A stretch of 64,000 nt of DNA from an uncultured Erysipelotrichaceae bacterium (GCA_964371715.1 CAYJNO010000004.1:27061-91060), one strand, 5' to 3'; positions 1 through 18,142 are shown, counted from the stretch's first letter. Numbers and translations are program-made. Notes: a model not told the origin generated them from the sequence alone.

Positions 1-984
1 ATTGATGCTATACCAGATGGTATTATAGATATACTTGTTGATATAGCAATTGGATCTCCTGCAAGTTGTGCATTAAGATTATTTAATTATGATTTAGATA
101 TTGCAAAAGAGTTATCAAAAAAGATATTTGTTAGTATGTTTAATAAAGCAGAAAGTTCAGCCATAATAGATTTATTATATGGTAAAAAAGAAGATCATTT
201 TTATTATGAAAATGTCATTAAATATTGTGTAGATGGAAATCTACAAGCAACACTTGATGAATATGCTCATATATTAAATGAAGATGGTGAAAAGCTTGCT
301 AAAGCAATGATAGATAGTTTTTCAGATACTGCATCCTTACAAATTGAAACTAAAGAATCTTTTATGAATAATGAAGAAAAAGCACGTATGAGAACTCATT
401 TTGCTGTAGGATATTTTAATACTAAAATAAGTGATGAAAATGTACAAAGAACAGAAATGATAAGAAAATCATTTAATTCACCATTTAGACCATTTGTTTT
501 ATCAACTACTTCAATTGGTCAAGAAGGTTTAGACTTTCATAATTATTCTAGAAAAATAGTACATTGGAATTTACCATCTAATCCAATTGATTTGGAACAA
601 AGAGAAGGTAGAATAAATAGATTTAAATCACTTGCAGTTAGAAGAAACATCGCAAGAAAATATGGATATGAAAATACATGGGAAGAAATGTTTGAAAAAG
701 CAATGATACATGAAAAAGGAAACAAATCAGATCTTGTACCATATTGGTATTTACCTAATTTAGATAAGGAAGCAGAAAAGATTGAAAGAATAGTTCCTAT
801 GTATCCATTAAGTGGAGACATAGGTAAATACAATAGATTAATAGAAGTATTATCATTATATAGATTAACACTTGGACAACCAAGACAAGAAGAATTATTA
901 GATATCTTAAAAAATGAAATTGATGATTTTGTAGATGACGAATTATTTATTAATTTAAGTCCTTTTAGTAAAACACAATTATAA
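1..984 (+). CDS. SF2 helicase, C-terminal part (5' end lies upstream of the window)
   Basis: Frame 1 is open from nt 1 to the stop at 982-984, so the track Met at 136 is internal. Helicase C-terminal motifs are present: STTSIGQEGLDFH (motif V-like) and QREGRINR (motif VI). The tail LSLYRLTLGQPRQEELL follows. Confidence 0.8.
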   Translation: MDAIPDGIIDILVDIAIGSPASCALRLFNYDLDIAKELSKKIFVSMFNKAESSAIIDLLYGKKEDHFYYENVIKYCVDGNLQATLDEYAHILNEDGEKLAKAMIDSFSDTASLQIETKESFMNNEEKARMRTHFAVGYFNTKISDENVQRTEMIRKSFNSPFRPFVLSTTSIGQEGLDFHNYSRKIVHWNLPSNPIDLEQREGRINRFKSLAVRRNIARKYGYENTWEEMFEKAMIHEKGNKSDLVPYWYLPNLDKEAEKIERIVPMYPLSGDIGKYNRLIEVLSLYRLTLGQPRQEELLDILKNEIDDFVDDELFINLSPFSKTQL

Positions 985-993
985 GGAGAATTT

Positions 994-1893
994 ATGGTGA
1001 AAAGAGGAAAAAGTGTAAATTTATTTTTACTTAATGGTACTCCAACAGGAGTTATTAAATGTACAATGTCAAATTGGATTGGTACTGCATTAAAAATACC
1101 AAGAAGTGAAATAGAAAATGTAAAAACAAGAGAAGAACTTAAAAATAGTAGTGTATATTTTTTGTTTGGTGAATCTGAAGATGAAAGTAAACCATCGGTA
1201 TATATTGGACAAGCATCAGCAAGAAAAAATAAAGATGGTGTAATAACAAGATTATTTGAACATAATAAAGATGAAAGTAAAGATTATTGGAGTAATGATG
1301 CAGTTGTTTTTACAACTACACAAAATATTTTTGGATCAACTGAAATAACATATTTAGAGAATAGATTTTATAATTTAGCAAAAGATGCTGGTAGATATTC
1401 AGTAAAAAATAAAAATGAACCATCAAGGGGTAATGTTACTGAAGAAAAAGAATCTGAATTAGAAGAATTTATAGAATATGCAACTATAATGCTAGGTACA
1501 CTTGGTTATCCTGTGTTTATACCTGTTATTGATAGAAGTAATGATAGTACTATTGAAAACAAAGAGAATACCGTTAATTTTTATTTGAATAGAAAAATTA
1601 CTAGAAGTGGTATAACAGTAAATGGAATAATGCGTATTACTAGTGAAGGATATGTAGTATTAAAAGGTTCATTAATTAATCCAACAGATTCAATTTCAAT
1701 ACCAGAAAAAATAAAATTAATGAGAAAAACAGTGAATATAGATAGTAATAATATATTACAAGAAGATGTATTATTCAAAAGTCCATCTTATGCAGGTGCA
1801 TTTGTTATAGGTGGACATATTAATGGGCAAAAAGAATGGAAGCTAGATAATAAAGTTACACTAAGTGAGTATGAGAGTAAGACAGCTAATTGA
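994..1893 (+). CDS. GIY-YIG nuclease family protein with DUF4357-like C-terminal domain
   Basis: The start lies 9 nt after the helicase stop. GIY-YIG core residues: SVYFLFG ... VYIGQA ... RLFEH ... YLENRFYN. The C-terminus FKSPSYAGAFVIGGHINGQKEWK resembles the DUF4357 signature. Confidence 0.7.
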   Translation: MVKRGKSVNLFLLNGTPTGVIKCTMSNWIGTALKIPRSEIENVKTREELKNSSVYFLFGESEDESKPSVYIGQASARKNKDGVITRLFEHNKDESKDYWSNDAVVFTTTQNIFGSTEITYLENRFYNLAKDAGRYSVKNKNEPSRGNVTEEKESELEEFIEYATIMLGTLGYPVFIPVIDRSNDSTIENKENTVNFYLNRKITRSGITVNGIMRITSEGYVVLKGSLINPTDSISIPEKIKLMRKTVNIDSNNILQEDVLFKSPSYAGAFVIGGHINGQKEWKLDNKVTLSEYESKTAN

Positions 1894-2273
1894 TTTATAC
1901 GATGCCTTTATTATTGTAGTTAATGATAAAAATTGGATTATTAGCAATTATTTGAATATATCATTACATTTAAGTGATTTACTATAAATAATAAACATAA
2001 AAATTTTTTTAATTTCATACATAAAAATGTTAAGAATCAATAAAGATTATTATTGTTAAATAGCATATGATATAATATTTTCATGATATTAGATTTAATT
2101 AAAGATAATACATTTATAATTTTATGTTTGTTATAAAGTCAATTTTACAGAAATAAAAAATTTAAAATTAATTGTATTGCAACTTTGTCTAAGAGTTAGA
2201 TGTTGAAACTTAATAATTAAATTAAAAGATATTTTTTGATTAATTAAGAAAAATGTTATAGGAGGAATAAATA

Positions 2274-3776
2274 ATGTCAGAAATCAATTCATCAAGTATA
2301 GGGTTTGAAAAACAACTTTGGGAAGCAGCCGATTCCTTGCGTGGAAACTTAGATGCTTCAGAATATAAATCAGTTATACTTGGACTAATATTTTTAAAAT
2401 ACATATCAGACAGATTTGAAGCAAAATATAACGAACTTGTAGCTGAGGGCGATGGTTTCGAGGAAGATATGGATGAATATACATCAGAGGGTATATTCTT
2501 TGTTCCCAACACATCTCGTTGGTCGGTAATTGCGAGTTCCGCTCATACAGCTGAAATTGGTACAGTTATCGATGAAGCTATGAGAGCTATTGAAAAAGAA
2601 AATAAAAGACTTAAAGATATTTTGCCGAAAAACTTTGCAAGACCCGAACTTGATAAAAGACGATTAGGTGAAGTTGTAGACCTTTTTACAAATATTAAAA
2701 TGATAGAGCATGGTAACAGTAAAGATATTTTAGGTCGTGCTTATGAATACTGTCTATCTAACTTTGCATCACAAGAAGGTAAAAATGCAGGTGAATTCTA
2801 TACACCTGCCTGTGTGGTTAAGACGTTAGTTGAAGTGCTACAACCATACAACGGTAGAGTTTATGACCCTGCTTGTGGTAGTGGTGGTATGTTTGTTCAA
2901 TCAGCAAAATTTATTGAAAATCATGGTGGAAACATCGGAAATATTTCTGTTTATGGACAAGATAGCAACCCTACAACTTGGAAAATGGCACAAATGAATC
3001 TTGCTATTCGAGGAATTGAAGCAGATCTGGGGAAAAATCATGCGGATACTTTCTTCAATGACTTACACCCACAATTAAAAGCTGATTATATTTTAGCTAA
3101 TCCACCTTTTAATATTTCTAACTGGGGAGCTGATAAGCTTACCGATGATGTACGTTGGCAATATGGTACACCACCAAACGGAAACGCAAACTTTGCTTGG
3201 CTACAACACATGATACACCACTTAGCACCAAACGGAAAAATTGGTATGGTACTTGCGAATGGCTCGCTTTCATCACAAACTGGTGGAGAGGGAGAAATTC
3301 GTAAAAACATCATAAATGCTGACCTTGTAGAATGTATTATCGCAATGCCTACACAGCTATTTTACTCAACACAGATACCAGTATCCCTTTGGTTTTTAGC
3401 GAAAAACAAGCGACAAACTGGCAAAACTTTATTTATAGATGCACGAAAAATGGGTACTATGGTTACTCGTAAACTTCGTGAAATGACCGATGATGATATT
3501 GCCAAAATTGCTGATACATACAATGCTTTTGTAGACGGAAGTTTAGAAGATGTAAAAGGGTTTTGTGCTGTTACGAAAACATCTGAAATTGAAAAGCAGG
3601 ATTTTATATTAACTCCTGGTCGATATGTTGGGATTGAGGAACAAGAAGATGATGGAGAACCATTCGATGATAAAATGAAAAGGTTGACAAGTGAATTGTC
3701 GGAGCTTTTTGCAAAGTCCCACGATTTAGAAAACGAGATTAAGAAGAACTTGAGGACGCTCGGATATGAAATCTAA
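2274..3776 (+). CDS. hsdM: Type I restriction-modification N6-adenine DNA methyltransferase subunit M
   Basis: RBS AGGAGG lies 8 nt upstream of the ATG. HsdM N-terminal signature LWEAADSLRGNLDASEYKSVILGLIFLKYISD is present. SAM motif I is VYDPACGSGGMF and catalytic motif IV is ILANPPFN. The gene overlaps hsdS by 11 nt. Confidence 0.95.
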   Translation: MSEINSSSIGFEKQLWEAADSLRGNLDASEYKSVILGLIFLKYISDRFEAKYNELVAEGDGFEEDMDEYTSEGIFFVPNTSRWSVIASSAHTAEIGTVIDEAMRAIEKENKRLKDILPKNFARPELDKRRLGEVVDLFTNIKMIEHGNSKDILGRAYEYCLSNFASQEGKNAGEFYTPACVVKTLVEVLQPYNGRVYDPACGSGGMFVQSAKFIENHGGNIGNISVYGQDSNPTTWKMAQMNLAIRGIEADLGKNHADTFFNDLHPQLKADYILANPPFNISNWGADKLTDDVRWQYGTPPNGNANFAWLQHMIHHLAPNGKIGMVLANGSLSSQTGGEGEIRKNIINADLVECIIAMPTQLFYSTQIPVSLWFLAKNKRQTGKTLFIDARKMGTMVTRKLREMTDDDIAKIADTYNAFVDGSLEDVKGFCAVTKTSEIEKQDFILTPGRYVGIEEQEDDGEPFDDKMKRLTSELSELFAKSHDLENEIKKNLRTLGYEI

Positions 3777-4950
3777 TTGGAAACAGGTTAAATTAGGGGA
3801 AGTTTGTGATGTTAAAGGTGGAAAAAGACTGCCGAAAGGTGAAGTGTTAACATCAAAAACTTCAGCACACCCCTATATTAAAATTAAAGATATAAAGACT
3901 ACTAAGCATTTAGAATTAGACCGTTCATTTGAGTATATAACAGAAGATATCCATACTAAGATAAGCAAATACATTGTTAATGTTAATGATATCATTATTT
4001 CTATTGTTGGTAGCATAGGTTTAGTGGCAAAAATCGGAGAAAGTTTAAATGAGGCAAATTTAACTGAAAACTGTGTAAAACTCATTAACAGAAAAAACAT
4101 AGATGAAAATTTTTTATATTATTTTCTTTCATCAAATATAGGGCAGGAAGAAATAAAAAAAGGAACTGTTGGAGCTGTTCAAGCAAAATTACCAATAAAG
4201 AATATCCAAGAAATAAAATTATTTCTCCCACCTATAGAAACCCAAAAGCAGATAGCAAAAATACTATCATCAATCGACGATAAAATCGAACTTAATAATA
4301 AGATAAACGATAATTTAGAAAAGCAAGCACAGGCAATTTTTAAATCGTGGTTTGTTGACTTTGAGCCTTTTGGTGGTGTTATTCCTGCTGATTGGAATGT
4401 CGGCACTGTTGGCGATGTCATTGAACTGCATGATGCAAAACGAGTGCCTTTGTCGGGTGCTGTTCGAGATAAAATGACAAATAAGTTATATCCCTATTAT
4501 GGTGCAGCTTCACTCATGGACTATGTTGATAACTATATCTTCGATGGCACTTATTTGTTGTTGGGTGAAGATGGAACAGTAGTGGATAGTCAAGGCTATC
4601 CTATTCTCCAATATGTTTGGGGCAAGTTTTGGGTAAATAACCACGCACACATTCTCACTGGTAAAAATGGTTTTACTGTTGAGAGTTTATATTTGCTATT
4701 TAAGCAAACACCCGTCAAATCAGTTGTGACAGGTGCAGTTCAGCCTAAAATTAGTCAAGGAAACCTAAAGTCCATAGAAGCCTTGATACCTGAATTAAGT
4801 GTGATGAATAAGTTTAATGACTTGATAAAGCCATTCTTCTTGAAGATTAAATCTAACAAAGAAGAAATTGGCAGATTATCTCAGCTTCGTGACACACTAC
4901 TACCAAAACTTATGAGTGGCGAAATAGATGTATCAAAAGTAGAGGTTTAA
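3766..4950 (+). CDS. hsdS: Type I restriction-modification specificity subunit S (two target-recognition domains)
   Basis: 394 aa. Two TRD-plus-conserved-spacer units are visible: LFLPPIETQKQIAKILSSIDDKIELNNKINDNLEKQAQAIF and IPELSVMNKFNDLIKPFFLKIKSNKEEIGRLSQLRDTLLPKLMSGEI. The start overlaps the hsdM stop. Confidence 0.9.
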   Translation: MKSNWKQVKLGEVCDVKGGKRLPKGEVLTSKTSAHPYIKIKDIKTTKHLELDRSFEYITEDIHTKISKYIVNVNDIIISIVGSIGLVAKIGESLNEANLTENCVKLINRKNIDENFLYYFLSSNIGQEEIKKGTVGAVQAKLPIKNIQEIKLFLPPIETQKQIAKILSSIDDKIELNNKINDNLEKQAQAIFKSWFVDFEPFGGVIPADWNVGTVGDVIELHDAKRVPLSGAVRDKMTNKLYPYYGAASLMDYVDNYIFDGTYLLLGEDGTVVDSQGYPILQYVWGKFWVNNHAHILTGKNGFTVESLYLLFKQTPVKSVVTGAVQPKISQGNLKSIEALIPELSVMNKFNDLIKPFFLKIKSNKEEIGRLSQLRDTLLPKLMSGEIDVSKVEV

Positions 4951-4980
4951 GCCACTAAATTATCGTTTATAGGAGGAATT

Positions 4981-5487
4981 ATGTTTTTAGATATTATTCG
5001 GGATATAGAAAATGCCTTAGAAAATGAAGTATATTTATCTGCACTGGCTTTATCTTTAACATTACCCGATATATGTGGGAAAGTAGAGTTTCCTACTATA
5101 AAGTCTACCAAACAACGATATATAAAGTGGTATGATAAGCACATTACAGCTAACAACTACCCCAATGACCACGACGAAGCATTAAAATTTAATGGCGAAA
5201 GATGTTACAAACTTAGATGTTCTTATTTACACGCAGGCGAAGTAGAACAATTTGATGGAATTGAAAATTTTGAGTTGATAATTTCAAATAAAACTCACCC
5301 TAGCGTTTATGGTGGTGGTTGTAGCACAATATTCATTGACCAAAACGGGACTAAAACTTACACAATACAACAAGATGTTGCACAACTATGTTTTTGGATT
5401 CACAGATGTGCAGAAGGTTTTTATAAAAAACATGAAAACAAAGATGCTTTTGAAAAAATAAATCCAATAATAAAAGTTAAATATTAA
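4981..5487 (+). CDS. Hypothetical protein, HEPN-like (Rx4H motif), embedded between hsdS and hsdR
   Basis: RBS GGAGG lies 5 nt upstream of the ATG. The 168-aa ORF fills the hsdS-hsdR gap. It has an N-terminal helix ALENEVYLSALALSLTLPDICG and the motif KLRCSYLH (R79-x4-H84, nt 5215-5232), typical of HEPN RNase folds. The family assignment was not verified. Confidence 0.5.
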   Translation: MFLDIIRDIENALENEVYLSALALSLTLPDICGKVEFPTIKSTKQRYIKWYDKHITANNYPNDHDEALKFNGERCYKLRCSYLHAGEVEQFDGIENFELIISNKTHPSVYGGGCSTIFIDQNGTKTYTIQQDVAQLCFWIHRCAEGFYKKHENKDAFEKINPIIKVKY

Positions 5488-5507
5488 ATTTGAAAGGAGC
5501 TGATGCA

Positions 5508-8500
5508 ATGGCATACACTGAAGCTAACTATGAAAATGCAATAATAGATTTATTCCAAAATCAATTTGGATACAACCATATATATGCACCAGAATTACCT
5601 CGTGATTACAGCAGTCCTTTGTATGAAGATATGCTTGTTTCTTGCCTTGCTCGAATAAACAAGAAACTACCACAAGATGCTATCAACGAAGCTATTTATA
5701 AGCTGAAAAACTTTGAGAGTGGTACACTAACTCAAAAGAATATTGTGTTTATGGACTACTTGCAAAATGGTGTCTCAGTTAGGTATTTTGAAAAAGGCGA
5801 AGAAAGAAATGCTATTGTTTATCTTATAGATTATCAAAATATAAACAATAACGATTTTACAGTAGCTAATCAATGGACATGTATTGAAAATTCAGAAAAA
5901 AGACCTGATGTACTACTTTTTGTAAATGGTTTGCCACTTGTAATGATAGAGCTTAAATCTCCATCAAGAGAAGAAACTGATGTGTCAGAAGCATATAGAC
6001 AACTAAGAAATTATATGTACGAGATACCATCTATGTTTTATTATAACGCAGTCTTGGTTATGAGCGACTTAACGACCTCTAAAGCAGGAACAATTACCAG
6101 TGGCGAAGATAGATTTATGGAATGGAAAACAACAGATGGAAACTATGAAAACACCCAGTATGCACAATTTGACACTTTCTTTGAAGGTATTTTTGAAAAG
6201 AATAGGTTTATAGATATTCTGAAAAACTTTATCTGTTTTAATGCTGATGGCGAGAAAACTTTTAAGATACTCGCAGGATATCATCAATATTTTGCAGTTA
6301 AAAAAGCTGTGGAAAAAGCAATGCAAGCTACTGAAACCGATGGTAAAGGTGGTGTGTTTTGGCATACGCAAGGTAGTGGTAAATCACTGTCAATGGTTTT
6401 CTATGCTCACTTGCTACAAGAGAAACTAAATTCTCCTACAATCGTAGTTATTACGGATAGAAATGATTTAGATGACCAACTGTATGGGCAGTTTTCAAGG
6501 TGTAGAGACTTTCTAAGACAAACACCAGTTCAAGCTGATAGTAGACCACATTTAAAAGAACTTTTAGCAGGTAGACAAGCTAACGGAATTATTTTCACAA
6601 CTATGCAAAAGTTTGAAGAAAATGATGTGCCTTTATCTGATAGAAGAAATATTATTGTTATGGCTGATGAAGCACATAGAGGACAATATGGACTTTCTGA
6701 AAAGGTAGAAATCAAAGAATATAAAGATGGCGAACTTACAGTAAAAACTAAAATTGGTGCTGCTAGAATTATTCGTGATAGCTTACCAAATGCTACATAC
6801 ATTGGCTTCACTGGCACTCCTATTTCATCAAAAGACCGTAGCACTCGTGAAGTGTTCGGCGATTACATAGATGTTTATGATATGACACAAGCCGTTGAAG
6901 ATGGAGCGACAAAGCCAGTTTATTATGAAAGCAGGGTTATTCATCTTAAACTAGATATTGATACTCTTGCTATGATAGATAATGAGTATGAAATTATGGC
7001 TGAAAATGCTGACGAATATGTTATTGATAAAAGCAAAAAAGAACTAGGAAAACTTGAAGTAATTTTGGGTGCTGATGAAACAATAGACTCGCTTGTCGGA
7101 GATATTTTAGACCACTATGAAAAGAATAGACAAAACTTACTTACTGGTAAAGCAATGATAGTTGCGTACTCTCGATCTATTGCAATGAAGATTTATAAAA
7201 AGATACTAGAACTTCGCCCTACTTGGGGAGAAACTGTTGGTGTTGTAATGACGCAGGGCAATAATGACCCCGAAGAATGGCGAGAGGTTATTGGAAATAA
7301 GGCGCATAAAGATGAACTGGCAAGAAAGTTTAAGGACAATAATTCTCATATGAAAATCGCTATTGTCGTTGATATGTGGCTTACTGGTTTTGATGTTCCA
7401 TCACTTGCTACAATGTATGTTTACAAGCCGATGATAGGACACAATTTAATGCAAGCAATCGCTCGTGTAAATCGTGTGTTTAAGGAAAAAGAAGGTGGTT
7501 TAGTTGTTGACTATGTAGGTATAGCTTCTGCACTTCGTAGTGCGATGAATGAATACACTAAACGAGATAAAGCAAACTTTGGCGATACAGATATTTCTAA
7601 AATGGCATTCCCTAAATTCAAAGAGAAGTTATCTGTTTGTCGTGACTTCTTGCATGGGTTTAATTATCAAAACTTTATGACGGGAACTGACCTTGAAAAA
7701 GCAAAAACTATCAGTGGTGGTGTAAACTTCTTACTTGGAAAATCTGTACTTGAAACAGATTTAGAAGAAAAAGAAAAATCACAAAATAAATATATCAAAG
7801 AAGCCTTGCTACTTAAACAAGCATTATCCCTTTGTAGTTCTTTAGTTGATGAACACACAAGGTTTGAAGCAGCTTATTTTGAAGCTGTTAGAACAATGCT
7901 TATCAGACTTACTATTGGTGGAGGTGGAAAGAAATTCACACTACCCGAAGTTAATGAGCGAATAAATGAGCTATTGAAACATTCAATTCAAAACGAGGGT
8001 GTAATAAATTTATTCTCTGATGTGCAAAATGAATTTTCGCTATTTGACCCTAAGTTCTTAGAAGAAATTGCAAATATGAAAGAGAAGAATTTAGCAGTAG
8101 AGCTTTTGAAAAAACTTATAGCCGAGCAAGTGTCAATTTACAGAAGAACTAATGTAGTTAAAAGCGAAAAATTTTCTGATATGATACAAATGGCAATGAA
8201 TAAATATTTGAATGGTATGCTAACAAATGAAGAAGTTATACAGGAGCTTTTAAAACTAGCTAAAGATTTAGCAGAAGCAAATGCTGAGGGTGATAAACTA
8301 GGACTTACACCAGATGAACTTGCTTTCTATGATGCACTCACAAAGCCACAAGCAATAAAGGATTTTTATGAGAATGATGAACTTGTTTCTCTTACAAAAG
8401 AGCTAACAGAACTGCTTAGAAAAAATCGTTCTATTGATTGGCAAAAGAAAGAAACAGCAAGAGCTAGCATGAGAAAACTTGTTAAAAGACTTTTAAAAAA

Positions 8501-8600
8501 ACATAGATATCCACCAGAAGGAATGGATGATGCAGTTCTAAGTGTTATCAGTCAGTGCGAGCTTTGGACGGATAACATTATGACAATTAAAAAAAATTAA
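5508..8600 (+). CDS. hsdR: Type I restriction endonuclease subunit R
   Basis: The preferred start is ATG 5508 (MAYTEANYENA), 8 nt after AAAGGAG; the track start 5490 is a TTG. N-terminal nuclease motif: RPDVLLFVNGLPLVMIELKS (D..E.K). Helicase motifs: HTQGSGKSLSM (Walker A), MADEAHRGQ (DEAH) and QAIARVNR (motif VI). The C-terminal LTPDELAFYDAL is typical of HsdR tails. Confidence 0.95.
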   Translation: MAYTEANYENAIIDLFQNQFGYNHIYAPELPRDYSSPLYEDMLVSCLARINKKLPQDAINEAIYKLKNFESGTLTQKNIVFMDYLQNGVSVRYFEKGEERNAIVYLIDYQNINNNDFTVANQWTCIENSEKRPDVLLFVNGLPLVMIELKSPSREETDVSEAYRQLRNYMYEIPSMFYYNAVLVMSDLTTSKAGTITSGEDRFMEWKTTDGNYENTQYAQFDTFFEGIFEKNRFIDILKNFICFNADGEKTFKILAGYHQYFAVKKAVEKAMQATETDGKGGVFWHTQGSGKSLSMVFYAHLLQEKLNSPTIVVITDRNDLDDQLYGQFSRCRDFLRQTPVQADSRPHLKELLAGRQANGIIFTTMQKFEENDVPLSDRRNIIVMADEAHRGQYGLSEKVEIKEYKDGELTVKTKIGAARIIRDSLPNATYIGFTGTPISSKDRSTREVFGDYIDVYDMTQAVEDGATKPVYYESRVIHLKLDIDTLAMIDNEYEIMAENADEYVIDKSKKELGKLEVILGADETIDSLVGDILDHYEKNRQNLLTGKAMIVAYSRSIAMKIYKKILELRPTWGETVGVVMTQGNNDPEEWREVIGNKAHKDELARKFKDNNSHMKIAIVVDMWLTGFDVPSLATMYVYKPMIGHNLMQAIARVNRVFKEKEGGLVVDYVGIASALRSAMNEYTKRDKANFGDTDISKMAFPKFKEKLSVCRDFLHGFNYQNFMTGTDLEKAKTISGGVNFLLGKSVLETDLEEKEKSQNKYIKEALLLKQALSLCSSLVDEHTRFEAAYFEAVRTMLIRLTIGGGGKKFTLPEVNERINELLKHSIQNEGVINLFSDVQNEFSLFDPKFLEEIANMKEKNLAVELLKKLIAEQVSIYRRTNVVKSEKFSDMIQMAMNKYLNGMLTNEEVIQELLKLAKDLAEANAEGDKLGLTPDELAFYDALTKPQAIKDFYENDELVSLTKELTELLRKNRSIDWQKKETARASMRKLVKRLLKKHRYPPEGMDDAVLSVISQCELWTDNIMTIKKN

Positions 8601-8858
8601 ATCTTGTCAATAATTACTAATTTATTACAGGCCACACACTAAAAAAATGAAAAGTGATATTAATAAAGAGGAATACCTTTACTTTATATATCATTTTTTT
8701 GTTACAAAAAAACAACTTTATAGAAATATACTTAAAATCCTTACCACGATACATGTAACAATTAGAATAGTATTTGGGTAATAGTTTTGACATATTTTAA
8801 ATTATATTTTTGTTTTTTAAAAAGGAATAAACAAACATAATTATATATTTCGATTTAA

Positions 8859-8888
8859 ATTGTATCTTTATATACAATGTGGTAAAAT
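8859..8888 (+). promoter_or_regulatory. Candidate sigma-A promoter with an inverted repeat over the -35, upstream of the NTPase/deaminase operon
   Basis: TTGTAT (8860-8865), 17 nt, then TAAAAT (8883-8888) preceded by TG at 8880-8881 (extended -10). The inverted repeat ATTGTAT-N6-ATACAAT (8859-8878) overlaps the -35. The site is 57 nt upstream of ATG 8945. Confidence 0.4.
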
Positions 8889-8944
8889 TTGATGGCATAT
8901 GTTGTGAAAGTTTTATTAAATGTTAAATACTGAGGGAGGATAAT

Positions 8945-11473
8945 ATGGATAAAACAGTATCATTTAAATGGGAATTAACAAAAAGAGCAATAGAAATAGA
9001 AGTAGATAAAATAGGTGATTCTAATTACTTATTTAATGAACAAATAAATCAAGTTGATAAAATTTGTAAAGAAATAATGAATTCTGGAGACAAGAATATA
9101 AACAAAGTAATTAGTGTAATTGGAGAAAGAGGAGCAGGTAAATCATCTTTACTTTTAAGTGCAAAATCTAAATTAGAAAGTAATGATGTTTATACTATTG
9201 GTCCAATAGACCCAGGTGTGTTTGATGATAAGTTAAATATACTAGAGCTAACATTAGCACACATTCACTCTATAGTTAAACGTAATAAAAATACATTTAG
9301 AGGGGAAAGTGCAGAATGTCAAAAAATTCATCTATATAATAGAATAAAATCAATTCTACAAGTTTTAAATAACATTAGAAGATGTCGTGAAGATTTTATC
9401 GAAAGTAATGATACTGATTATGTGTTAGATGATTATGATAAAAGAAGTAATTTCTCTGAATTATTAAAAGAGTTACTTGATATGTTTAGAGATTATATTA
9501 ATGCTACTAATAACAAACACTATAAACAAATTGCAATTATTATTGATGACTTAGATTTAGTAGGTAATAGTAGAATAGTCAATTTTTTAGAGGATATTAG
9601 AAAATATTTAATGAATAATGTGATTGTTGTTTTAGCTTATAGAGATATACAGCTACAAAATGCAATGAGTGAATATTTAATAAAAGAAAATGATGATCTA
9701 ATTAGAAATAAAATGATTGATACAAATGAGATAATAGCTCAATCTACAAAATATATAGATAAATTCTCACCACCTTCATCAAGAATTTATATGCCAAATC
9801 TTTCAATATCAGATAAATTTACAGTTTTAGATTTATTGGTAGGTATTAGTGATAGTAGTAAGAGTGAGTTAAAAGAATATTTAAAATTATATGGTTTAAA
9901 TGATGATTTACCGCTAAAAGAAGGTGTATTAGTTATCTTAAATAATCAATTGAGAATAAATCTTAATGCGATAGATGCAAGAGAAAGAAATATGAGCTTA
10001 TTACCTACTAATCTTAGAGGATATCTAGAACTTTTTAATTTAATATTTGAAAAAATGGAGGTTGTAAACTGCAAATCAAAAGATGATATTAAAGTGGCAT
10101 CTAAAAGTATTCTATTCAATATAGAGCTATTTAAAATATATATGCAAGAAAACTATAAGAATAGATTAACTAGTGCACAAATAACAATAATAAATGAATG
10201 GTCTAATTGCAATGTGGATATGAAAAATTACTTATTATATAAGAGTATGATTGATTCAAGTGAAAATTACATTGCTAGTCCATATTTTGGACAATTATTA
10301 GACTTGAGATTAGTTCAACCATTTAATGTTACTTTAGCTGATGTTTATATCGCATTAGAGGTATATAAAGACTTATCAAAAGAAGATCAAAATTATTATT
10401 TTATATATATTATAAAAATATTATATTCAATGGAACTCTCAAAAAATTATGTTAATTGGATATGTAGTGATTCTGAAGAGGATGGGGAAGTATTTTTAGA
10501 TTCATACTTAACAATCTTAAACTCTTATGTAATTCCGAATTATTGGATGGATGGGATCATGATCAACATTAGTAGAAATATAAGATATGATAATGGAAAC
10601 AAAAATGAAGTATTTGAAAATTTCTATAAAAATTGTGTATATAACCAAGTAACAGCATTAGGGTTAGTTAACAGAGGTGCAAGGCAAGAATTGACTTACA
10701 GTGTAGCAAAAGCAGATGATGATATCTTTGCTAATAGAAATTCAAGATTGGTAAATCCAAGAAACTCGAAAAGGATTTCTGCATTTAGATATCGCAAAAT
10801 ATTTTCATCAGATTATATTGAGTTTGAAAATGGTAGAAGTTATGAATATGACTTCTTTGGATTTATTGGAAGAAGAAGCTATTTAGAAGAGTCAAAGGCT
10901 AAATTATTATCTAATCAAGAAATGAAACTAAATTATGTTTTAACATCGTTATTTGATATAGACGTATTTATATCACAAAACTATTTCACTAATGACGAAA
11001 CGAATATAATTAACATAATCATAAAAAATATTGACAAATTATTTAATGGAGAAAGACTTGGTGATGAAGAAAATTCGAAAGCAAAAGATAGAAGGTTAGG
11101 TAATTTATCAAGTGAGATATTTACTAGTAGTATAAATTATGAAAATTTTTATTTAAATATAAGCTCAAATAATGAAACAACAGACAATAATAAGTATAGA
11201 GAAATATCGGATAGTCTGTATAATTTTATTAAACAAGAAAATATACAGCTAAAGAGGATTGTAAACAATATTGATAAAATTAAAAATAAACATGATTTAT
11301 TATCGTTTATTAAGCTAGAAACTCAAAAATTGAACAGTAAAAAATACAGAAATCAAATTTTAATATTAGATGAAATCAACGCTGTTTTAAATGCATCAGG
11401 AAAAAAACTATCAATTGAAATAAAGGAAAAATATAAATCTGTATTTAAAGAAATTTATAAAATTGATAACTAA
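8945..11473 (+). CDS. rdrA: Large P-loop NTPase (KAP/AAA-like), RADAR RdrA-like by size and gene context
   Basis: RBS GGGAGG. 842 aa. Walker A is VIGERGAGKSSLL (nt ~9121-9148) and Walker B is IAIIIDDLDLV (nt ~9531-9560). A long alpha-rich C-terminal region follows and there are no TM segments. The stop lies 1 nt before the ATG of the deaminase gene. The symbol is assigned from architecture, not from measured identity. Confidence 0.55.
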   Translation: MDKTVSFKWELTKRAIEIEVDKIGDSNYLFNEQINQVDKICKEIMNSGDKNINKVISVIGERGAGKSSLLLSAKSKLESNDVYTIGPIDPGVFDDKLNILELTLAHIHSIVKRNKNTFRGESAECQKIHLYNRIKSILQVLNNIRRCREDFIESNDTDYVLDDYDKRSNFSELLKELLDMFRDYINATNNKHYKQIAIIIDDLDLVGNSRIVNFLEDIRKYLMNNVIVVLAYRDIQLQNAMSEYLIKENDDLIRNKMIDTNEIIAQSTKYIDKFSPPSSRIYMPNLSISDKFTVLDLLVGISDSSKSELKEYLKLYGLNDDLPLKEGVLVILNNQLRINLNAIDARERNMSLLPTNLRGYLELFNLIFEKMEVVNCKSKDDIKVASKSILFNIELFKIYMQENYKNRLTSAQITIINEWSNCNVDMKNYLLYKSMIDSSENYIASPYFGQLLDLRLVQPFNVTLADVYIALEVYKDLSKEDQNYYFIYIIKILYSMELSKNYVNWICSDSEEDGEVFLDSYLTILNSYVIPNYWMDGIMINISRNIRYDNGNKNEVFENFYKNCVYNQVTALGLVNRGARQELTYSVAKADDDIFANRNSRLVNPRNSKRISAFRYRKIFSSDYIEFENGRSYEYDFFGFIGRRSYLEESKAKLLSNQEMKLNYVLTSLFDIDVFISQNYFTNDETNIINIIIKNIDKLFNGERLGDEENSKAKDRRLGNLSSEIFTSSINYENFYLNISSNNETTDNNKYREISDSLYNFIKQENIQLKRIVNNIDKIKNKHDLLSFIKLETQKLNSKKYRNQILILDEINAVLNASGKKLSIEIKEKYKSVFKEIYKIDN

Positions 11474-11474
11474 T

Positions 11475-13859
11475 ATGCAAAATGTTGATAGAATAATAAG
11501 AGTTATATATCGAGAATTATTTAGTAAAATTCTCGATAGTAACACAATAGAAAAGGATTTAAAAGTAGATTATAGTTTAAATAATACTGATTTTGTTAGG
11601 GATATTATTTATGCATATTTAAAAATATATCCAAATAACTATAATTATGAAGAAGTAAATATATTAGTTGAAAAAGTTAAAGATGAAATTAAGCATAAGT
11701 ATAATAATTTGAATCCACTATATATAATTATGCTTTATGCTAATGAAATATTACTAGTTGAATCAAATAGGCTCAAAGTTAAATTTGATGATTTATTTGA
11801 ATGGAATGGATTTATCACTAAAATAGATAGTAATATTTTTCAAGCTGCATTTTTACAAAATAGTAATGGTTTAAACTGTGAAACAGTTATAGAACATGAC
11901 AATGAAAGATTATATAATATTCTTAAAACTGGCTTATATGAAAACCATATGCATTTAAATGGTTCTGGATATTCATGGGAAATTAACTGGGATATACTAG
12001 TTTGTTCAAAGCCTTTTAATTATATAAAAAGGAAAATTAGTAAAAATATAAAATTAGCTAAATACGCTAATGAAAATTATTTAAGGATTGATAAAATCAA
12101 ATGTATAAGGTTATATCTAATATGGATAATATTAGGTAAAAAGAAAGAATACCATTTTGAAATTAGTAGAATATTAAAGAATAATTATAGATTTTACATG
12201 TATCAGGACTTAGATAAGCTTACAATATTATATGATTTATCGAAAGAATACTTTAAAAAACAATATGGAGATAGTCAAGAAGTTAATAAAAAAGAGAGAA
12301 ACTTTTTAATAGAAATATTTAAATGTTTTAATAATGGTCAATTAAATAATTTCGACAAAAATCTATTAAACATATATCTAGCAGAATTAAGTGAGTTAAA
12401 GTTCATTTTTGTTCAAGATAATATTGGTATGGGATTTAGTAAGTTTAAAGATTGTGAAATGATTAAAAGTGATTTCATGGATAAAAAAGAAGATAAGCTT
12501 TTATTAGAATCTGTATTAGAAAAATATTATAGTGAAGGTGTTGTTTTAGCTATAGAAGTAAGAATAGCTCCAAAAGATAAAACAGGACTAATTAAAAAAA
12601 TAAAGGAACTAGAAAAAGTAAATGAGAAAGTTTACAAAAAGTATTTAAGAAGAAATAAGTGTTTAAAGAAAATCAAAATTGGAATTATAATACATTATAT
12701 AAAGATGAGTGAAAAATTTACAAATAATGGTTGTAGACATTCAAATTTAAGGGGTAGAATTAAAAAAGCTGCAGTAGGTCTTGATCAGTATTTTGAAAGT
12801 GGATATAAATCTGATATTAAAGTTGTCGGTATAGATGCTGCAAATGTTGAAATAGATTGTCCACCTGAAGTATTAGCACCTATATTTAGGAAACATAGAG
12901 CAAATACTTCCAGTAAATATGATTTAGGTTTTACATATCATGTAGGTGAAGAATTTTTAACTTTAGCAAGTGGGTTAAGAGCAATAGATGATTTAATTGA
13001 ATTTTTTAATTTCAAATCTGGTGATAGGTTAGGGCATGCTTTAAGCCTTGGGTTAGATCCTGATAAATACTTTTCTACTAAAAGAAATCTAATTAATACA
13101 ACATTAGAAAGCCATGTAGATGATCTTGTGTTTTTACATAAAATAAATTGTGCTTTAGGTGAAGCAAATTTATGTTTCAAATTAGAACAAGAATTTATTA
13201 AATATGCTTCAAAATTATTTGTAAATACTTTAGAAAGTCTTCCATTAATTACAGATTATAGAGATAGCTATGCGCTAAGAGGAAATGATCCAAAGTATTT
13301 AGATAATAACATATGTTCTGAAAATCAACCTGTATTTATGTGTGAGAAAGACCATATCTATAATTTCAACAATTCTAATCATAATGAAGCTTTTAAAAAT
13401 AAGCTTGCCCATAAATTATTGGGATTATATCATTATAATGAAGACTTATATAATACAGGTAAAACTTCTCTTTCTATAAATGTTGAAGATTTCTATATTA
13501 ATGCAGTTAAAAATGTTCAAAAATATATGATTAAAAGAGTACATAACATTGGTATCTCAATAGAAATCAATCCATCATCAAATAAGAAAATATCATTTAT
13601 TGACAAGTATAGTGATTTAACAGTATACAAACTTAATAATTATAAACTACCTAATGCAGATAATACAATTAATAACTTACATGTAAGTATTAATACAGAT
13701 GATAGTGGAATTTTTGAAACTAACTTATCTACTGAATATTCATACATTGCTCTATCTTTGATAAAAGATGGTGTTGATAAAGAAATAGTTTATGAATATA
13801 TAGAATATTTAATTAAGATGGGAAAAGATGCTTCATTTTTAAATAAGACTATAAGGTGA
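11475..13859 (+). CDS. rdrB: Divergent adenosine deaminase-fold protein with large insertions, RADAR RdrB-like
   Basis: The preferred start is ATG 11475; the track start 11463 is a TTG overlapping the upstream gene. All four metal/catalytic signatures of the adenosine/AMP deaminase superfamily occur in the correct order. They are ENHMHLNGS (HxH, nt ~11944-11966), TYHVGEEF (HxGE, nt ~12939-12956), DRLGHAL (nt ~13025-13042) and SINTDDSGIF (NTDD, nt ~13690-13710). At ~795 aa it is about twice the size of housekeeping Add. Confidence 0.65.
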   Translation: MQNVDRIIRVIYRELFSKILDSNTIEKDLKVDYSLNNTDFVRDIIYAYLKIYPNNYNYEEVNILVEKVKDEIKHKYNNLNPLYIIMLYANEILLVESNRLKVKFDDLFEWNGFITKIDSNIFQAAFLQNSNGLNCETVIEHDNERLYNILKTGLYENHMHLNGSGYSWEINWDILVCSKPFNYIKRKISKNIKLAKYANENYLRIDKIKCIRLYLIWIILGKKKEYHFEISRILKNNYRFYMYQDLDKLTILYDLSKEYFKKQYGDSQEVNKKERNFLIEIFKCFNNGQLNNFDKNLLNIYLAELSELKFIFVQDNIGMGFSKFKDCEMIKSDFMDKKEDKLLLESVLEKYYSEGVVLAIEVRIAPKDKTGLIKKIKELEKVNEKVYKKYLRRNKCLKKIKIGIIIHYIKMSEKFTNNGCRHSNLRGRIKKAAVGLDQYFESGYKSDIKVVGIDAANVEIDCPPEVLAPIFRKHRANTSSKYDLGFTYHVGEEFLTLASGLRAIDDLIEFFNFKSGDRLGHALSLGLDPDKYFSTKRNLINTTLESHVDDLVFLHKINCALGEANLCFKLEQEFIKYASKLFVNTLESLPLITDYRDSYALRGNDPKYLDNNICSENQPVFMCEKDHIYNFNNSNHNEAFKNKLAHKLLGLYHYNEDLYNTGKTSLSINVEDFYINAVKNVQKYMIKRVHNIGISIEINPSSNKKISFIDKYSDLTVYKLNNYKLPNADNTINNLHVSINTDDSGIFETNLSTEYSYIALSLIKDGVDKEIVYEYIEYLIKMGKDASFLNKTIR

Positions 13860-13950
13860 TTAGCGAGAATAAAAAATAATTTTATGAATATGATATAATA
13901 ATATAGTGAAATAAGTAATGTATGTAATTAAGGTTAAAAGGAGATCATAT

Positions 13951-15135
13951 ATGAGCGAATCAAATTCTTCACATGTAAAGGGTCTACATAATTTTTTAGC
14001 TAATATCGATTGTTTAAATAAAATATATGAACATACAAATAGATTTAACATATTTGATGTGCTAAAAATAGCAAAGACTGAAATCAGACATAGTAATACT
14101 ATTGCATGGTTGTTAGACCCAAATGAAAATCATGGATTAAATGAAAAGATTTTATTAGGTCTAGTTAAAAATATTGCTAGTCACTTAGATGTTGAATCAA
14201 GTATTAAGTTATTATCTATAGATTTAAATGATTTTAAGGTATATAGAGAAAAGTATAATATAGATATTTTGCTAGTTTCAACAAAGAATAAAGTTGTTAT
14301 ATGCATTGAAAATAAAGTTTGTTCATATGAACATGGTGATCAATTAAACTATTACAAAGGGATTGTTGAAAATAGTTATAAAGACTTTAATAAATACTAC
14401 ATTTACTTAACAGCAAGAAATGATGAACCAAGTGATGGTGAAAATTGGAAAAAATTTTCTTATGAAAAACTGGTTAATATAATTGATGAAGCAATAAAAG
14501 ATAATGAAATAATATCAGTTGAAGTTTATTATTTTTTAAAAAATTACATAGAAATAGTGAGGTATAATGTTTTGGAAAATAAAGAATTAATAGATATTTG
14601 TCAAAAGATTTATAATGATCATTCAAAAGCTTTGGATTTAATTTATGAATATAAGCCAGATCATAGAGAAGAATATAAAACATTTATTTTAGATTATTTG
14701 AAAAGATGTGATTTATTTAATAGTCGTTTTAACTTAAATGAAGGTTGTTCTAATAATGAGCATATTAGATTTACATCATATATACTTGATGAGAAAATTC
14801 CTCAATCATCAACAAAAACAAGTGGGTGGGATACGAAAAATCATTATTTTTATGAAATATATAATGATGGTTTTTCAATATATTTACAACTTGCGATCAG
14901 CAAAGGTAGCTTAAGTACGGATGAAGCAAATAATAAGTTTGAAAAAATAATTAAAAAATTAAAATGTAAAAATAATAAAGTTAATTGGAAATGGAAAGTT
15001 TTAATAAAATATGATGTTTGTGATTATAGGGGATATGAAGATGTTGCAGATGCTAAAAAAGATATTAAATTGGAATTAGATAAAAATTTGAAAAAAATAA
15101 TTGAACTTGAAAATAATAACTTTAAAACTTTATAG
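13951..15135 (+). CDS. PD-(D/E)xK nuclease superfamily protein (PDDEXK_4-like)
   Basis: The preferred start is ATG 13951 (MSESNSS), 7 nt after AAAGGAG; the track start is 13918. N-terminal signature: FNIFDVLKIAKTEIRHSNTIAWLLDPNENHGL. Nuclease core: DILLVSTKNKVVICIENKV (D...E.K). A possible own promoter TGATATAAT lies at 13891-13899. Confidence 0.6.
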   Translation: MSESNSSHVKGLHNFLANIDCLNKIYEHTNRFNIFDVLKIAKTEIRHSNTIAWLLDPNENHGLNEKILLGLVKNIASHLDVESSIKLLSIDLNDFKVYREKYNIDILLVSTKNKVVICIENKVCSYEHGDQLNYYKGIVENSYKDFNKYYIYLTARNDEPSDGENWKKFSYEKLVNIIDEAIKDNEIISVEVYYFLKNYIEIVRYNVLENKELIDICQKIYNDHSKALDLIYEYKPDHREEYKTFILDYLKRCDLFNSRFNLNEGCSNNEHIRFTSYILDEKIPQSSTKTSGWDTKNHYFYEIYNDGFSIYLQLAISKGSLSTDEANNKFEKIIKKLKCKNNKVNWKWKVLIKYDVCDYRGYEDVADAKKDIKLELDKNLKKIIELENNNFKTL

Positions 15136-15164
15136 TAGTTGAAAGAAAAAAATATGTATTAAAG

Positions 15165-15198
15165 AGAGGATAATCTAAAATCATTATCTTCTTTTTTT
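15165..15198 (+). terminator. Rho-independent terminator after the PD-(D/E)xK gene
   Basis: A 10-bp stem AGAGGATAAT / ATTATCTTCT (one G:U pair) with an 8-nt loop, followed by a T7 run. Confidence 0.6.
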
Positions 15199-15430
15199 AC
15201 TATGAATTATTTGCTTATTAATAAGTACCTATTAATATAAAATAGTACTTTTTTATCGAAAACTGCTACAGATAAAATATAAATAGACAAAATTTAATCA
15301 ACAGCTAAAATATTTACTAAGTCAGGTAGAATAAAATTTGTGTTTTAATATAAATTACATAAACGAACGGGTGAATGATAAAAAAATAAAAGCAATATCA
15401 TTTTGTACACAAAAACATATATCATCAAAA

Positions 15431-15473
15431 GTTATGTCTGATCTATTGACATAACTTTTATTATTAGTATAAT
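15431..15473 (+). promoter_or_regulatory. Near-consensus sigma-A promoter with a perfect 8-bp inverted repeat over the -35 (candidate operator)
   Basis: TTGACA (15446-15451), 16 nt, then TATAAT (15468-15473). The inverted repeat GTTATGTC-N9-GACATAAC (15431-15455) overlaps the -35. The site is ~50 nt upstream of ATG 15523. Confidence 0.55.
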
Positions 15474-15522
15474 AACACTCATAAATGAACATAAAAACAT
15501 ATATCAAATAAAGGGGGGTTGA

Positions 15523-16098
15523 ATGCACACAAATATTAAAGGAATAGGTAATTTAATTGGTGGTCAGATTATTAATAGAGTTGAGGCTAAACGTGATGAT
15601 TTTGAATTTGGTGAAATTAAAATACTAGCTCCCAAAGCTATTACAAATGGTGTAATTGATCACAGTTCACTAACAAGTCTAAAAATTAAAACAATGCCAG
15701 ATGAAAAGAAATTAACTAAAGAAGGTGACATTGTCTTAAAGTTATCTCAACCATATGAGGCAGCATATATTAATAAAGATGATGAAGGTTTATTAGTTAC
15801 ATCATTTTGTATTATTTTAAGGAATATTCAAAAAGATGAAATTAGTCCAAACTTTATACTTACATTTATTAACTCTGAATTATATAAAGAACAAGTATTA
15901 GAGTTAACATCAGGTGCAAGTGTTCCTTTATTAACTAAAGGCTTAATAGAAAAGATAACACTAGATGTACCTACTATTATTGCTCAATCTATTATAGTAG
16001 GTAAATCTGACTCTATTAAAAGAAAAGAAGCTTTGTTTAATGAAGTAATTAAGTTAGAAAAAATGAAACTTGAAAATATGCTTAGAGGTGAAGAATAA
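15523..16098 (+). CDS. Half-size HsdS-like specificity protein (single target-recognition domain)
   Basis: RBS GGGGGG. 191 aa. One TRD is followed by the S-subunit conserved helix region LDVPTIIAQSIIVGKSDSIKRKEALFNEVIKLEKMKLENML. Its stop overlaps the next ATG (TAATG). Confidence 0.7.
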   Translation: MHTNIKGIGNLIGGQIINRVEAKRDDFEFGEIKILAPKAITNGVIDHSSLTSLKIKTMPDEKKLTKEGDIVLKLSQPYEAAYINKDDEGLLVTSFCIILRNIQKDEISPNFILTFINSELYKEQVLELTSGASVPLLTKGLIEKITLDVPTIIAQSIIVGKSDSIKRKEALFNEVIKLEKMKLENMLRGEE

Positions 16099-17423: not shown

Positions 17424-17437
17424 AAAGGAGGAAATAA

Positions 17438-18142
17438 ATGAATTATTTTATAAAAGAAAACAAATGGTTAACGCTTATCTCATTGCCACTTATTATATGG
17501 AGTGTCTTATTTATCACAATGCCATTTATTACTTACTATAATATCAATTTATTTAGTAGTAGCTATATGATGCTATATGCAGTATATTTAGGATCTTATA
17601 TTATTGTGGTAGGTATTACATTAAATAACAAAAAAGCAATGAAAATTAAACAAGCAGAAAAAGAAAGACTACTTATTGTCGAATCATTAGCTAAAATTAA
17701 GATAAATGAACCGAAAAATATCTTGACTACATTTACATCAATGAATGCAGCTAATAATATTAATAATAATGATATAGTTATCATTAAAGAGCGTTTATCT
17801 AATCTAATTTATAGCATAAATAATAATAAACTTATATTAAGTACATCAAATGATAAAAGACTAAATCATTATATTGACCAGTTTAACAAGACTACAAACA
17901 CCATTGAAGAAACAATAGCTAAATTAGAATTATTTATCAATAATTCTATAGAAAATAATAAGACAATTTTTGAACTTGAAAAAGCTAAACAATTATTCAA
18001 TGAGTCACCAAGTTTTACAAGATCTTTAAAGGTACAAAAATTTAAACATGAAATGATAGATCTTACACAAGATTTTGAAGAATTAACTTTATTAACTGAA
18101 GAATGTTCTAAAGTAAATTATAAGATTAATATTGATAATTAA
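17438..18142 (+). CDS. Two-TM membrane protein with a cytoplasmic coiled-coil-like domain, function unknown
   Basis: RBS AGGAGG; the start is 14 nt after the M-like stop. Two hydrophobic helices are present: LTLISLPLIIWSVLFITMPF and MMLYAVYLGSYIIVVGITL. A ~170-aa charged and Asn-rich helical region follows. Confidence 0.6.
   Translation: MNYFIKENKWLTLISLPLIIWSVLFITMPFITYYNINLFSSSYMMLYAVYLGSYIIVVGITLNNKKAMKIKQAEKERLLIVESLAKIKINEPKNILTTFTSMNAANNINNNDIVIIKERLSNLIYSINNNKLILSTSNDKRLNHYIDQFNKTTNTIEETIAKLELFINNSIENNKTIFELEKAKQLFNESPSFTRSLKVQKFKHEMIDLTQDFEELTLLTEECSKVNYKINIDN

Follow-up and report, generated by a model that had tools for sequence, protein, structure and literature searches.

What does a small gene of no named family do in the middle of a type I restriction-modification (R-M) operon? 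The question is raised by a stretch of 64,000 nucleotides from an uncultured Erysipelotrichaceae bacterium (GCA_964371715.1 CAYJNO010000004.1:27061-91060), the whole of which is called the window here, in which an open reading frame (ORF) encoding 168 amino acids lies at 4981-5487 on the plus strand, between the genes of the specificity and restriction subunits. Its product, for which X is used as shorthand, had originally been predicted to be a HEPN-like ribonuclease embedded in, and perhaps guarded by, the R-M system. The comparisons and models reported below put at about even the chance that X is a self-contained HEPN-like effector, autonomous in its defensive action and belonging to a large, undescribed family. 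By analogy with known HEPN effectors, such a protein would probably cut RNA as a back-up weapon against phages.

The features of the window on which the argument leans are these:

2274-3776, plus strand: hsdM, first gene of the operon, type I methyltransferase subunit (Pfam N6_Mtase 6.8e-113, HsdM_N 8e-28; PADLOC MTase_I 5.6e-218)
3766-4950, plus strand: hsdS, specificity subunit with two target-recognition domains (Pfam Methylase_S 5.6e-44, in two stretches; PADLOC Specificity_I 1.4e-97)
4951-4980, plus strand: leader of X, 30 nucleotides (nt), containing AGGAGG at 4971-4976
4981-5487, plus strand: X, 168 amino acids, unannotated and putatively HEPN-like family, PHROG 18591
5068-5082, plus strand: codons of D30-K34 in the LTLPDICGK block, candidate equivalent of the upstream acidic element E-x3-[KR] of HEPN domains
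5215-5232, plus strand: codons of R79-C-S-Y-L-H84, the R-x4-H motif and presumed catalytic centre
5508-8600, plus strand: hsdR, restriction/translocase subunit (Pfam HSDR_N, SWI2_SNF2, T1R_D3-like and T1RH-like_C; PADLOC REase_I 3.9e-293)

The original prediction described this setting well. The ORF is intact and has its own ribosome-binding site, with a 4-nt gap between the AGGAGG and the ATG; the TAA stop of hsdS at 4948-4950 and the hsdR ATG at 5508 are where they had been placed; and both Pfam and PADLOC recover hsdM, hsdS and hsdR, so that all type I subunits are present, in the order hsdM-hsdS-X-hsdR and on one strand. The hsdR ATG lies 20 nt past the stop of X, in frame with the long ORF and with an AAAGGAG of its own before it, and hsdS overlaps the 3′ end of hsdM by 11 nt. 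Since the spacers on either side of X measure only 30 and 20 nt, and no terminator-like site was seen in the window sequence between the genes of the operon, X is read as part of the hsdMSR transcript, i.e., as co-transcribed with it; its leader is too short to hold a terminator or an RNA gene of its own. Evidently the four genes came in as one block: GC content is 32-38% across 2274-8600, as opposed to 21-27% in the flanks, and the step falls exactly at hsdM-hsdS-X-hsdR, with X (31%) grouping with the operon. The operon thus looks like a recent import, by horizontal transfer, into a genome of about 2.0 Mb that is very rich in AT. The closest copy of X (locus L001) is found in a Clostridia metagenome-assembled genome (MAG), whose hsdM and hsdR are 95% and 90% identical to those of the window. 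The two X sequences are 83% identical, with a ratio of nonsynonymous to synonymous substitution rates (dN/dS) of 0.13 at a dS of 0.62, which shows X to be a real, intact gene under purifying selection. An antisense ORF at 4947-5156 (69 amino acids) is treated as probably spurious, being short and TTG-initiated; at 77 loci of X homologues the antisense open stretches, of which length alone was measured, have a median of 90 amino acids including 300-nt flanks.

Existing collections of protein families say little about X. Neither NCBIfam nor Pfam-A contains a family that matches it, the latter giving only a sub-threshold chance match, and none of the 5027 models of PADLOC v2.0.0, PDC and HEC candidates included, recognises it (0 families). 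Among 136 relatives, PADLOC matches are scattered and weak, the commonest being DzbB (4 members, best E 0.0017), and no PDB sequence matched X or the family profile at E<=10. There is a match to PHROG 18591, of unknown function, at E = 5e-31, with residues 4-163 of X aligned to profile positions 5-154 of 168. Even so, the family is a large one: an exhaustive search (E<=1e-3) yields 1730 representatives at 50% identity, and a word-indexed search 53 clusters at 90% identity. Most members are from Bacillota, others from Planctomycetota, Bacteroidota, Actinomycetota, Pseudomonadota, candidate-phyla bacteria, one archaeon, temperate phages and plasmids, and every source that names them labels them 'hypothetical'.

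When 136 diverse members, about 30-40% identical to X, are aligned, the sole invariant columns are R79 and H84, whose spacing is fixed at four residues. These are the two residues that the original prediction had picked out of KLRCSYLH, which does span residues 77-84, and both its numbering and the importance it gave them are borne out in all 136 sequences. Conservation reaches at least 90% at P29, D30, C32, Y47, W50, Y76, L78, C80, L83, G86 and F97, and the family signature can be written LTLPDICG[KQ] ... Y-x-L-R-[CN]-x-x-L-H-x-G. The motif of the HEPN superfamily is R-x4-6-H, and the residue after its arginine is usually polar, N, D or H. In the X family this position, 80, is C in 123 of the 136 members, N in 12 and R in one, so that the 12 members with N80 show the canonical HEPN form RN-x3-H. 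D30 is kept in 134 of the 136; at position 34, 83 members have K, 25 have Q and 8 have R. A natural tandem X-X protein (P0055), in which each half has its own R-x4-H, fits a dimeric working unit and may be taken as a sequence-level hint of one. Among the fusion partners of the longer homologues Pfam recognises only DUF2971 (fused to X in P0116) and LRR_5, which is uninformative.

A confident AlphaFold2 model of X built from a 49-sequence alignment (pLDDT, the score predicted for the local distance difference test, 87; predicted template modelling score, pTM, 0.84) has helices at 2-14, 18-25, 28-36, 43-59, 72-85, 133-150 and 154-160, and three strands within 96-132; a second model, of a relative 35% identical to X (P0024), agrees with it in layout. 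R79 and H84 are predicted to lie at the C-terminal end of helix 72-85, followed by G86 and a loop, and their counterparts in the second model, R75 and H80, are borne by helix 68-81. The 'long amphipathic helix' formerly placed before the motif was therefore only roughly right: the motif ends a helix of 14 residues, and it is one of 17 (43-59) that precedes it. HEPN domains have the motif where core helix 3 ends and the loop to helix 4 begins, and an upstream acidic element, typically E-x3-[KR], in helix 2 (PMC3710099). The predicted placement of R-x4-H matches the former in both models, and D30-x3-K34 in helix 28-36, with D instead of E, is a candidate for the latter.

When the models were compared with the PDB by Foldseek, the only entries with a template modelling (TM) score above 0.3 among the top 50 listed for the first model were the HEPN protein AF0298 (2hsb; TM 0.38/0.47) and AbiV (9bj7; 0.35-0.40). 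For the second model, 2hsb ranked second and AbiV fourth, fifth, sixth and thirteenth (TM 0.35-0.43) among 18 matches at E<=10. For each of the two models, these two proteins are the only full-length matches (TM 0.36-0.47 overall). HEPN proteins make up, by our own rough estimate, well under 1% of the 350,000 PDB chains, and their recurrence in two models is for that reason unlikely to be due to chance, though each match is weak. Against BFVD, uncharacterised phage members of the X family are the only matches beyond short and weak local ones.

Several observations weigh against a HEPN-like ribonuclease. Neither model has a significant Foldseek match in the PDB (E 0.3-9, TM <0.5). Pfam, including DUF4145 and the other HEPN models by which the original prediction had hoped to recognise the fold, gives no HEPN-clan match for X or its 136 relatives, even at E<=10. 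Comparison by hhalign of the 136-sequence alignment with DUF4145 and PF05168, for which we built targets from genome matches (18 domains and 8 sequences, respectively), gave probabilities below 1%, in a test of little power, since the control comparison of DUF4145 with PF05168 failed too; sequences of AbiU2 (PF18734) and AbiV (PF18728), sought in 200 genomes each for the same purpose, were not found. Cysteine mostly takes the place after the motif arginine, where N, D or H would be typical; the canonical HEPN core has no counterpart of the three-stranded sheet that separates the motif helix from the final one; and the family is acidic (median isoelectric point 5.65), which does not suit a simple picture of RNA binding. 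Finally, no antitoxin, RNA repeat array or partner was found that could keep a free ribonuclease harmless: all-against-all clustering of the four genes on each side of X revealed no antitoxin-like or conserved protein partner besides HsdM, HsdS and HsdR, and Tandem Repeats Finder (TRF) found no consistent tandem repeats within 1.2 kb upstream of X at 77 loci, at most of which X abuts the gene upstream. What had been said of HEPN character is accordingly upheld by the motif, its position on the helix and the structural neighbours, and left without help by Pfam and by fold matches that are individually non-significant; as it stands, the HEPN-like assignment is a plausible reading of the models, coherent internally and short of proof.

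Whether X depends on the R-M system can be judged from the company its homologues keep. One genome per species was scanned, giving 116 relatives, of which 80 loci were kept and searched for Hsd proteins by tblastn and jackhmmer, with those of the window as queries. The supposition that homologues are embedded in type I operons holds for about 30 of the 80 loci (~38%), 18 of which have hsdM, hsdS and hsdR, whilst roughly 60% lie outside R-M operons. Where X is embedded it is always co-oriented with the operon, with hsdR downstream in all cases and hsdM upstream in all but one, usually in the order hsdM-hsdS-X-hsdR or hsdM-X-hsdS-hsdR, and its stop and start codons often abut or overlap hsdS or hsdR. 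HsdM (26 loci), HsdS (22) and HsdR (19) are by far the largest groups among the clustered neighbours, followed by GmrSD-type enzymes (6 loci) and a ResIII+Eco57I type ISP-like enzyme of about 1350 amino acids (5 loci). The Hsd proteins of the embedded loci are near-identical in some cases and hardly detectable in others (E about 1e-25), hence they represent several type I families. A maximum-likelihood tree of the X proteins requires 15 changes of the label 'embedded', at least 10 of which are forced by well-supported branches, so that embedding must have been gained or lost many times; the label is still more clustered than in shuffles.

The non-embedded loci, about 47 in number, are heterogeneous, and the neighbours of X there include T5orf172, Fic, ArdA, methyltransferases, GmrSD and ordinary housekeeping genes. 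Large plasmids also carry members of the family, as do temperate phages of Arthrobacter, Gordonia, Erysipelothrix, Acinetobacter and Bacillus (SPbeta-like). Two phage loci were examined: the homologue lies beside the integrase in one (Arthrobacter phage Nandita) and after the lysis cassette in the other (Erysipelothrix phage SE-1), both of which are classic positions of prophage accessory genes.

X is also optional in its own family of R-M operons. We used the HsdR N-terminus as a query against 350 genomes of the same class and inspected the 30 best loci, which include HsdRs 73% and 68% identical to that of the window; X lies upstream of hsdR only in the window's own locus and is missing from the 29 others. 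In many of these same-family loci hsdS abuts hsdR, and in four the place between them is taken by unrelated, unannotated ORFs of 172-309 amino acids without Pfam match, two of them predicted membrane proteins:

L117, 2476-3081, minus strand: alternative ORF in the hsdS-hsdR slot
L119, 142-853: alternative ORF in the slot
L123, 477-1102: alternative ORF in the slot
L126, 564-1490: alternative ORF in the slot

Slots that are empty or otherwise filled make the hsdS-hsdR junction a cargo slot, and X one of its several alternative occupants; the others are further candidates for embedded defence genes. Embedded loci may also hold extra cargo between X and hsdR, namely DUF4238 in L004 and L006 (8574-9491), DUF5677 in L051 (8785-9840), a GmrSD-type enzyme, by Pfam, in L010 (10351-12447) and, in L039 (9008-11116), a 702-amino-acid ORF whose GmrSD type is deduced from size and position. 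This stacking indicates that a single type I operon can carry several accessory genes.

We infer a HEPN fold, ribonuclease activity, dimerisation and a defence role for X, and the following picture would unite them. X would consist of a helical HEPN-like core of AbiV/AF0298 type, to which a three-stranded sheet is added, with R79 and H84 as the predicted active centre. Two copies would pair so that their R-x4-H motifs come face to face, by analogy with HEPN enzymes, and the dimer would cleave RNA without metal, halting translation in the infected cell and leading to abortive infection or growth arrest. X rides as optional cargo in the hsdS-hsdR slot, and restriction would be the first layer of defence and X the second. 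Its control is probably intrinsic, because most homologues have neither an R-M neighbour nor a conserved partner and a sensor domain is missing from X; it could be, for instance, an auto-inhibited oligomer opened by a phage protein, as for HepS and Tha. Dependence on masking by the R-M complex is not favoured.

HepS (HEPN Solo, a defence element of the Gifsy-1 prophage; Nature 2026, PMC13043305) and Tha (from S. aureus prophages) resemble the X homologues in being stand-alone proteins with R-x4-H, encoded at prophage accessory positions and, like X, without an antitoxin protein. Both are auto-inhibited oligomers opened by a phage structural protein, HepS being a tetramer with the pair R100-H105 that is activated by the tail protein J (PMC13043305). 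By this analogy they are a likely model for the control of free-standing X homologues. On the other hand, neither is reported inside type I R-M operons, X has no sequence match to any PDB chain, and no HepS entry is found among its Foldseek matches. AbiV of Lactococcus (9bj7; HEPN_AbiV, PF18728), the best whole-length Foldseek neighbour of both models (TM 0.40-0.42), is likewise small (~200 amino acids) and stand-alone, with a helical core plus a beta element and R-x(4-6)-H after the core helix, yet neither X nor its 136 relatives match PF18728. AbiV is lysine-rich, has a flexible and poorly conserved motif and is paired with an RNA antitoxin, abiV2, whereas X is acidic and its motif invariant and helical; the 30- and 20-nt spacers leave no room for an adjacent RNA gene and there are no repeats, although a non-repetitive RNA is possible in the stand-alone loci. 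Both AbiV and Tha have large positive RNA-binding patches, in which they differ from the X family.

Short HEPN modules recur within or fused to R-M components in DUF4145 (PF13643) and some 16 R-M-linked HEPN clades, a likeness to X, and DUF4145 is fused to HsdR-sized proteins in relatives of the window genome. Its motif, however, is R-x2-GN-x3-H as opposed to R-[CN]-x2-L-H in X, to which it has no Pfam match and an hhalign probability of 0.4% (18-domain alignment; a low-power test). Anantharaman et al. (2013) linked at least 16 HEPN clades to R-M and proposed the PrrC analogy for all of them (PMC3710099). Payne et al. (2024) found defence genes to predominate among those embedded in type I R-M, BREX, DISARM and Hma systems ('guilt-by-embedding'), the embedded HEPN protein HEC-08 to need the histidine of its Rx4-6H for defence, and over half of the embedded genes of type I R-M to be still unexplained (bioRxiv 10.1101/2024.01.29.577857). 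X is, like those genes, uncharacterised and nested in a multi-gene defence system and, as it matches none of the PADLOC v2.0.0 models, PDC included, it appears to fall outside the 145 candidates they list. It is thus an undescribed family within a known kind, embedded HEPN ribonucleases and guilt-by-embedding being already established.

The nearest precedent for the position of X is PrrC of the type IC system EcoprrI (prrA-prrB-prrC-prrD), which is also encoded on the same strand between hsdS and hsdR, also has a conserved motif of R-x4-H type and also has a presumed second-line, RNA-targeting role in defence. X could then be a latent ribonuclease held inactive by HsdMSR and freed once the complex is put out of action by an anti-restriction protein of a phage (Ocr, ArdA or Stp-like), a reading that we consider unlikely for X in spite of what it explains. 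With hsdM-hsdS-X-hsdR, X occupies the same slot as prrC (PMC3710099). It directly abuts hsdR in 9 loci, in 5 of which (L016, L027, L028, L064 and L072) start and stop overlap by 1-4 nt, suggesting coupled synthesis; it is linked to type ISP-like translocating restriction enzymes too; and the leader of X and the X-hsdR junction are common to the window and L001, whilst the hsdS side differs, other genes lying there between hsdS and X and a different gene upstream of the leader. However, a family in which ~60% of the homologues have no R-M neighbour must have a control independent of R-M. Embedding comes and goes on the tree (at least 10 times), the position of X varies (hsdM-X-hsdS, hsdS-X-hsdR or upstream of hsdM), and other cargo often separates it from hsdR. 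Type I R-M is the almost exclusive setting of PrrC (Payne et al., bioRxiv 10.1101/2024.01.29.577857), which, with about 400 amino acids, bears an N-terminal ABC-ATPase sensor, whereas X, with 168, has no ATPase or nucleotide-sensing domain, neither an NTPase domain nor a P-loop being found in its sequence or by Pfam, and no sequence similarity to PrrC. It is on these two differences, in embedding and in the sensor, that release from the R-M complex is ranked below intrinsic control. For the embedded subset release is a possible mode of control, favoured there by the coupled X-hsdR junctions and the type I and ISP links.

A variant of that idea, which we rate as less likely still, dispenses with the ATPase altogether: X would be a minimal guardian, a dimeric HEPN-like ribonuclease kept by coupled translation at a fixed ratio to HsdR, docking on the motor of type I (perhaps also ISP) enzymes and freed to stop translation once a phage inhibitor blocks or strips the enzyme. 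If true, this would be a guard of PrrC type in a protein less than half the size of PrrC and without nucleotide sensor.

A further step down in likelihood, X might be no nuclease at all but an accessory or regulatory subunit of translocating restriction enzymes, in which R79 and H84 serve binding and not catalysis; it might tune HsdR activity, or act in restriction alleviation or in establishment in a new host. Its preference for the place just upstream of hsdR, with stop/start overlap, its association with type I and type ISP-like enzymes alike and an acidity atypical of an RNA binder would all be accommodated, and non-catalytic HEPN domains are known as binding domains (PMC3710099). Nevertheless, an arginine and a histidine that are invariant and at fixed spacing in 136 sequences at about 35% identity are the signature of an active site. 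A subunit would also not be expected to have most of its homologues far from any restriction enzyme, nor to be missing from close relatives of the window's R-M system, and the accessory-gene locations in prophages suit an autonomous function.

The least probable of the readings that we carry forward, and a remote one, is that X is an enzyme of some other fold or chemistry in which R-x4-H is coincidental, e.g., with a Cys/His metal site (C32, C80, H84, C137) or a DNA- or nucleotide-directed activity. It would draw on the three cysteines, each more than 88% conserved and on three different helices, on the lack of any significant HEPN match, on short, weak, local Foldseek matches in BFVD to SprT/M10 peptidases, and on one homologue (P0102) in which X is fused to a C-terminal region of ~250 amino acids ending in C-x6-C-x2-C-x5-C, a motif read by eye that is like the Fe-S loop of endonuclease III. 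But X has no HExxH, its whole-length structural neighbours are exclusively HEPN proteins, and the cysteines are replaced singly and without coordination (C32 to F/L/M/G; C137 to A/S/I/L/V/T/Y; C80 to N). Single replacement beside an invariant arginine and histidine is what buried packing residues would be expected to show and disfavours a metal site; as the leading explanation, a zinc site of C32/C80/H84/C137 is rejected on account of these swaps to hydrophobic residues or N whilst R79 and H84 never change. A type III toxin-antitoxin layout is rejected for want of consistent repeat arrays near X in the 77 loci analysed by TRF.

If X is indeed an autonomous effector of HEPN-like type, it would add a compact single-gene candidate to the solo effectors AbiV, HepS and Tha, and naming the family, together with an active site that can be tested (R79, H84), would close an annotation gap in surveys of defence islands. 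Since X is found within R-M operons as well as away from them, it is well suited to asking whether embedding means functional coupling or only co-transfer and co-expression.

Some further observations concern the loci themselves. In one clade, the hsdS beside X contains 2.7-4.7 copies of a 12-nt repeat, CTTACAGCCGAG, which encodes LTAE and varies in copy number by locus; it is like the TAEL repeat that sets spacer length in the central part of type IC HsdS. The repeat sites are:

L005, 5592-5635: CTTACAGCCGAG repeat in hsdS
L007, 1414-1462: the same repeat
L008, 9114-9157: the same repeat
L009, 9097-9128: the same repeat
L013, 9148-9203: the same repeat
L014, 9097-9140: the same repeat

Two loci of 15 kb, L004 and L006, have the same ORF layout and an identical X, though one is assigned to a Lachnospiraceae MAG and the other to a Prevotella MAG of one rumen study; either the binning went wrong or a transfer between phyla took place very recently. 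Elsewhere in the window's own genome (G000:C24:28309-28548, locus L111), a 137-amino-acid ORF unrelated to X matches Pfam HEPN (PF05168) barely above the cut-off (23.3 bits).

In the window, the R-M operon belongs to a co-oriented defence island of 18 kb, made up of 1-13859 and 13918-18142. Directly downstream of hsdR lies a RADAR-like pair (8945-13859). Its second gene (798 amino acids), with an adenosine-deaminase C-terminal stretch, matches RdrB in NCBIfam (NF041744, 2.7e-39, 135 bits as against a cut-off of 800 bits) and in PADLOC (4e-25), and its first gene (842 amino acids) has only AAA_22/STAND-like matches and no PADLOC match to RdrA, so that the pair may be a divergent RADAR variant. 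The remainder of the island, on the same strand, holds a PDDEXK_4 nuclease (13918-15135) and a second N6_Mtase (16098-17423), the latter flanked by unannotated ORFs at 15523-16098 and 17438-18142.
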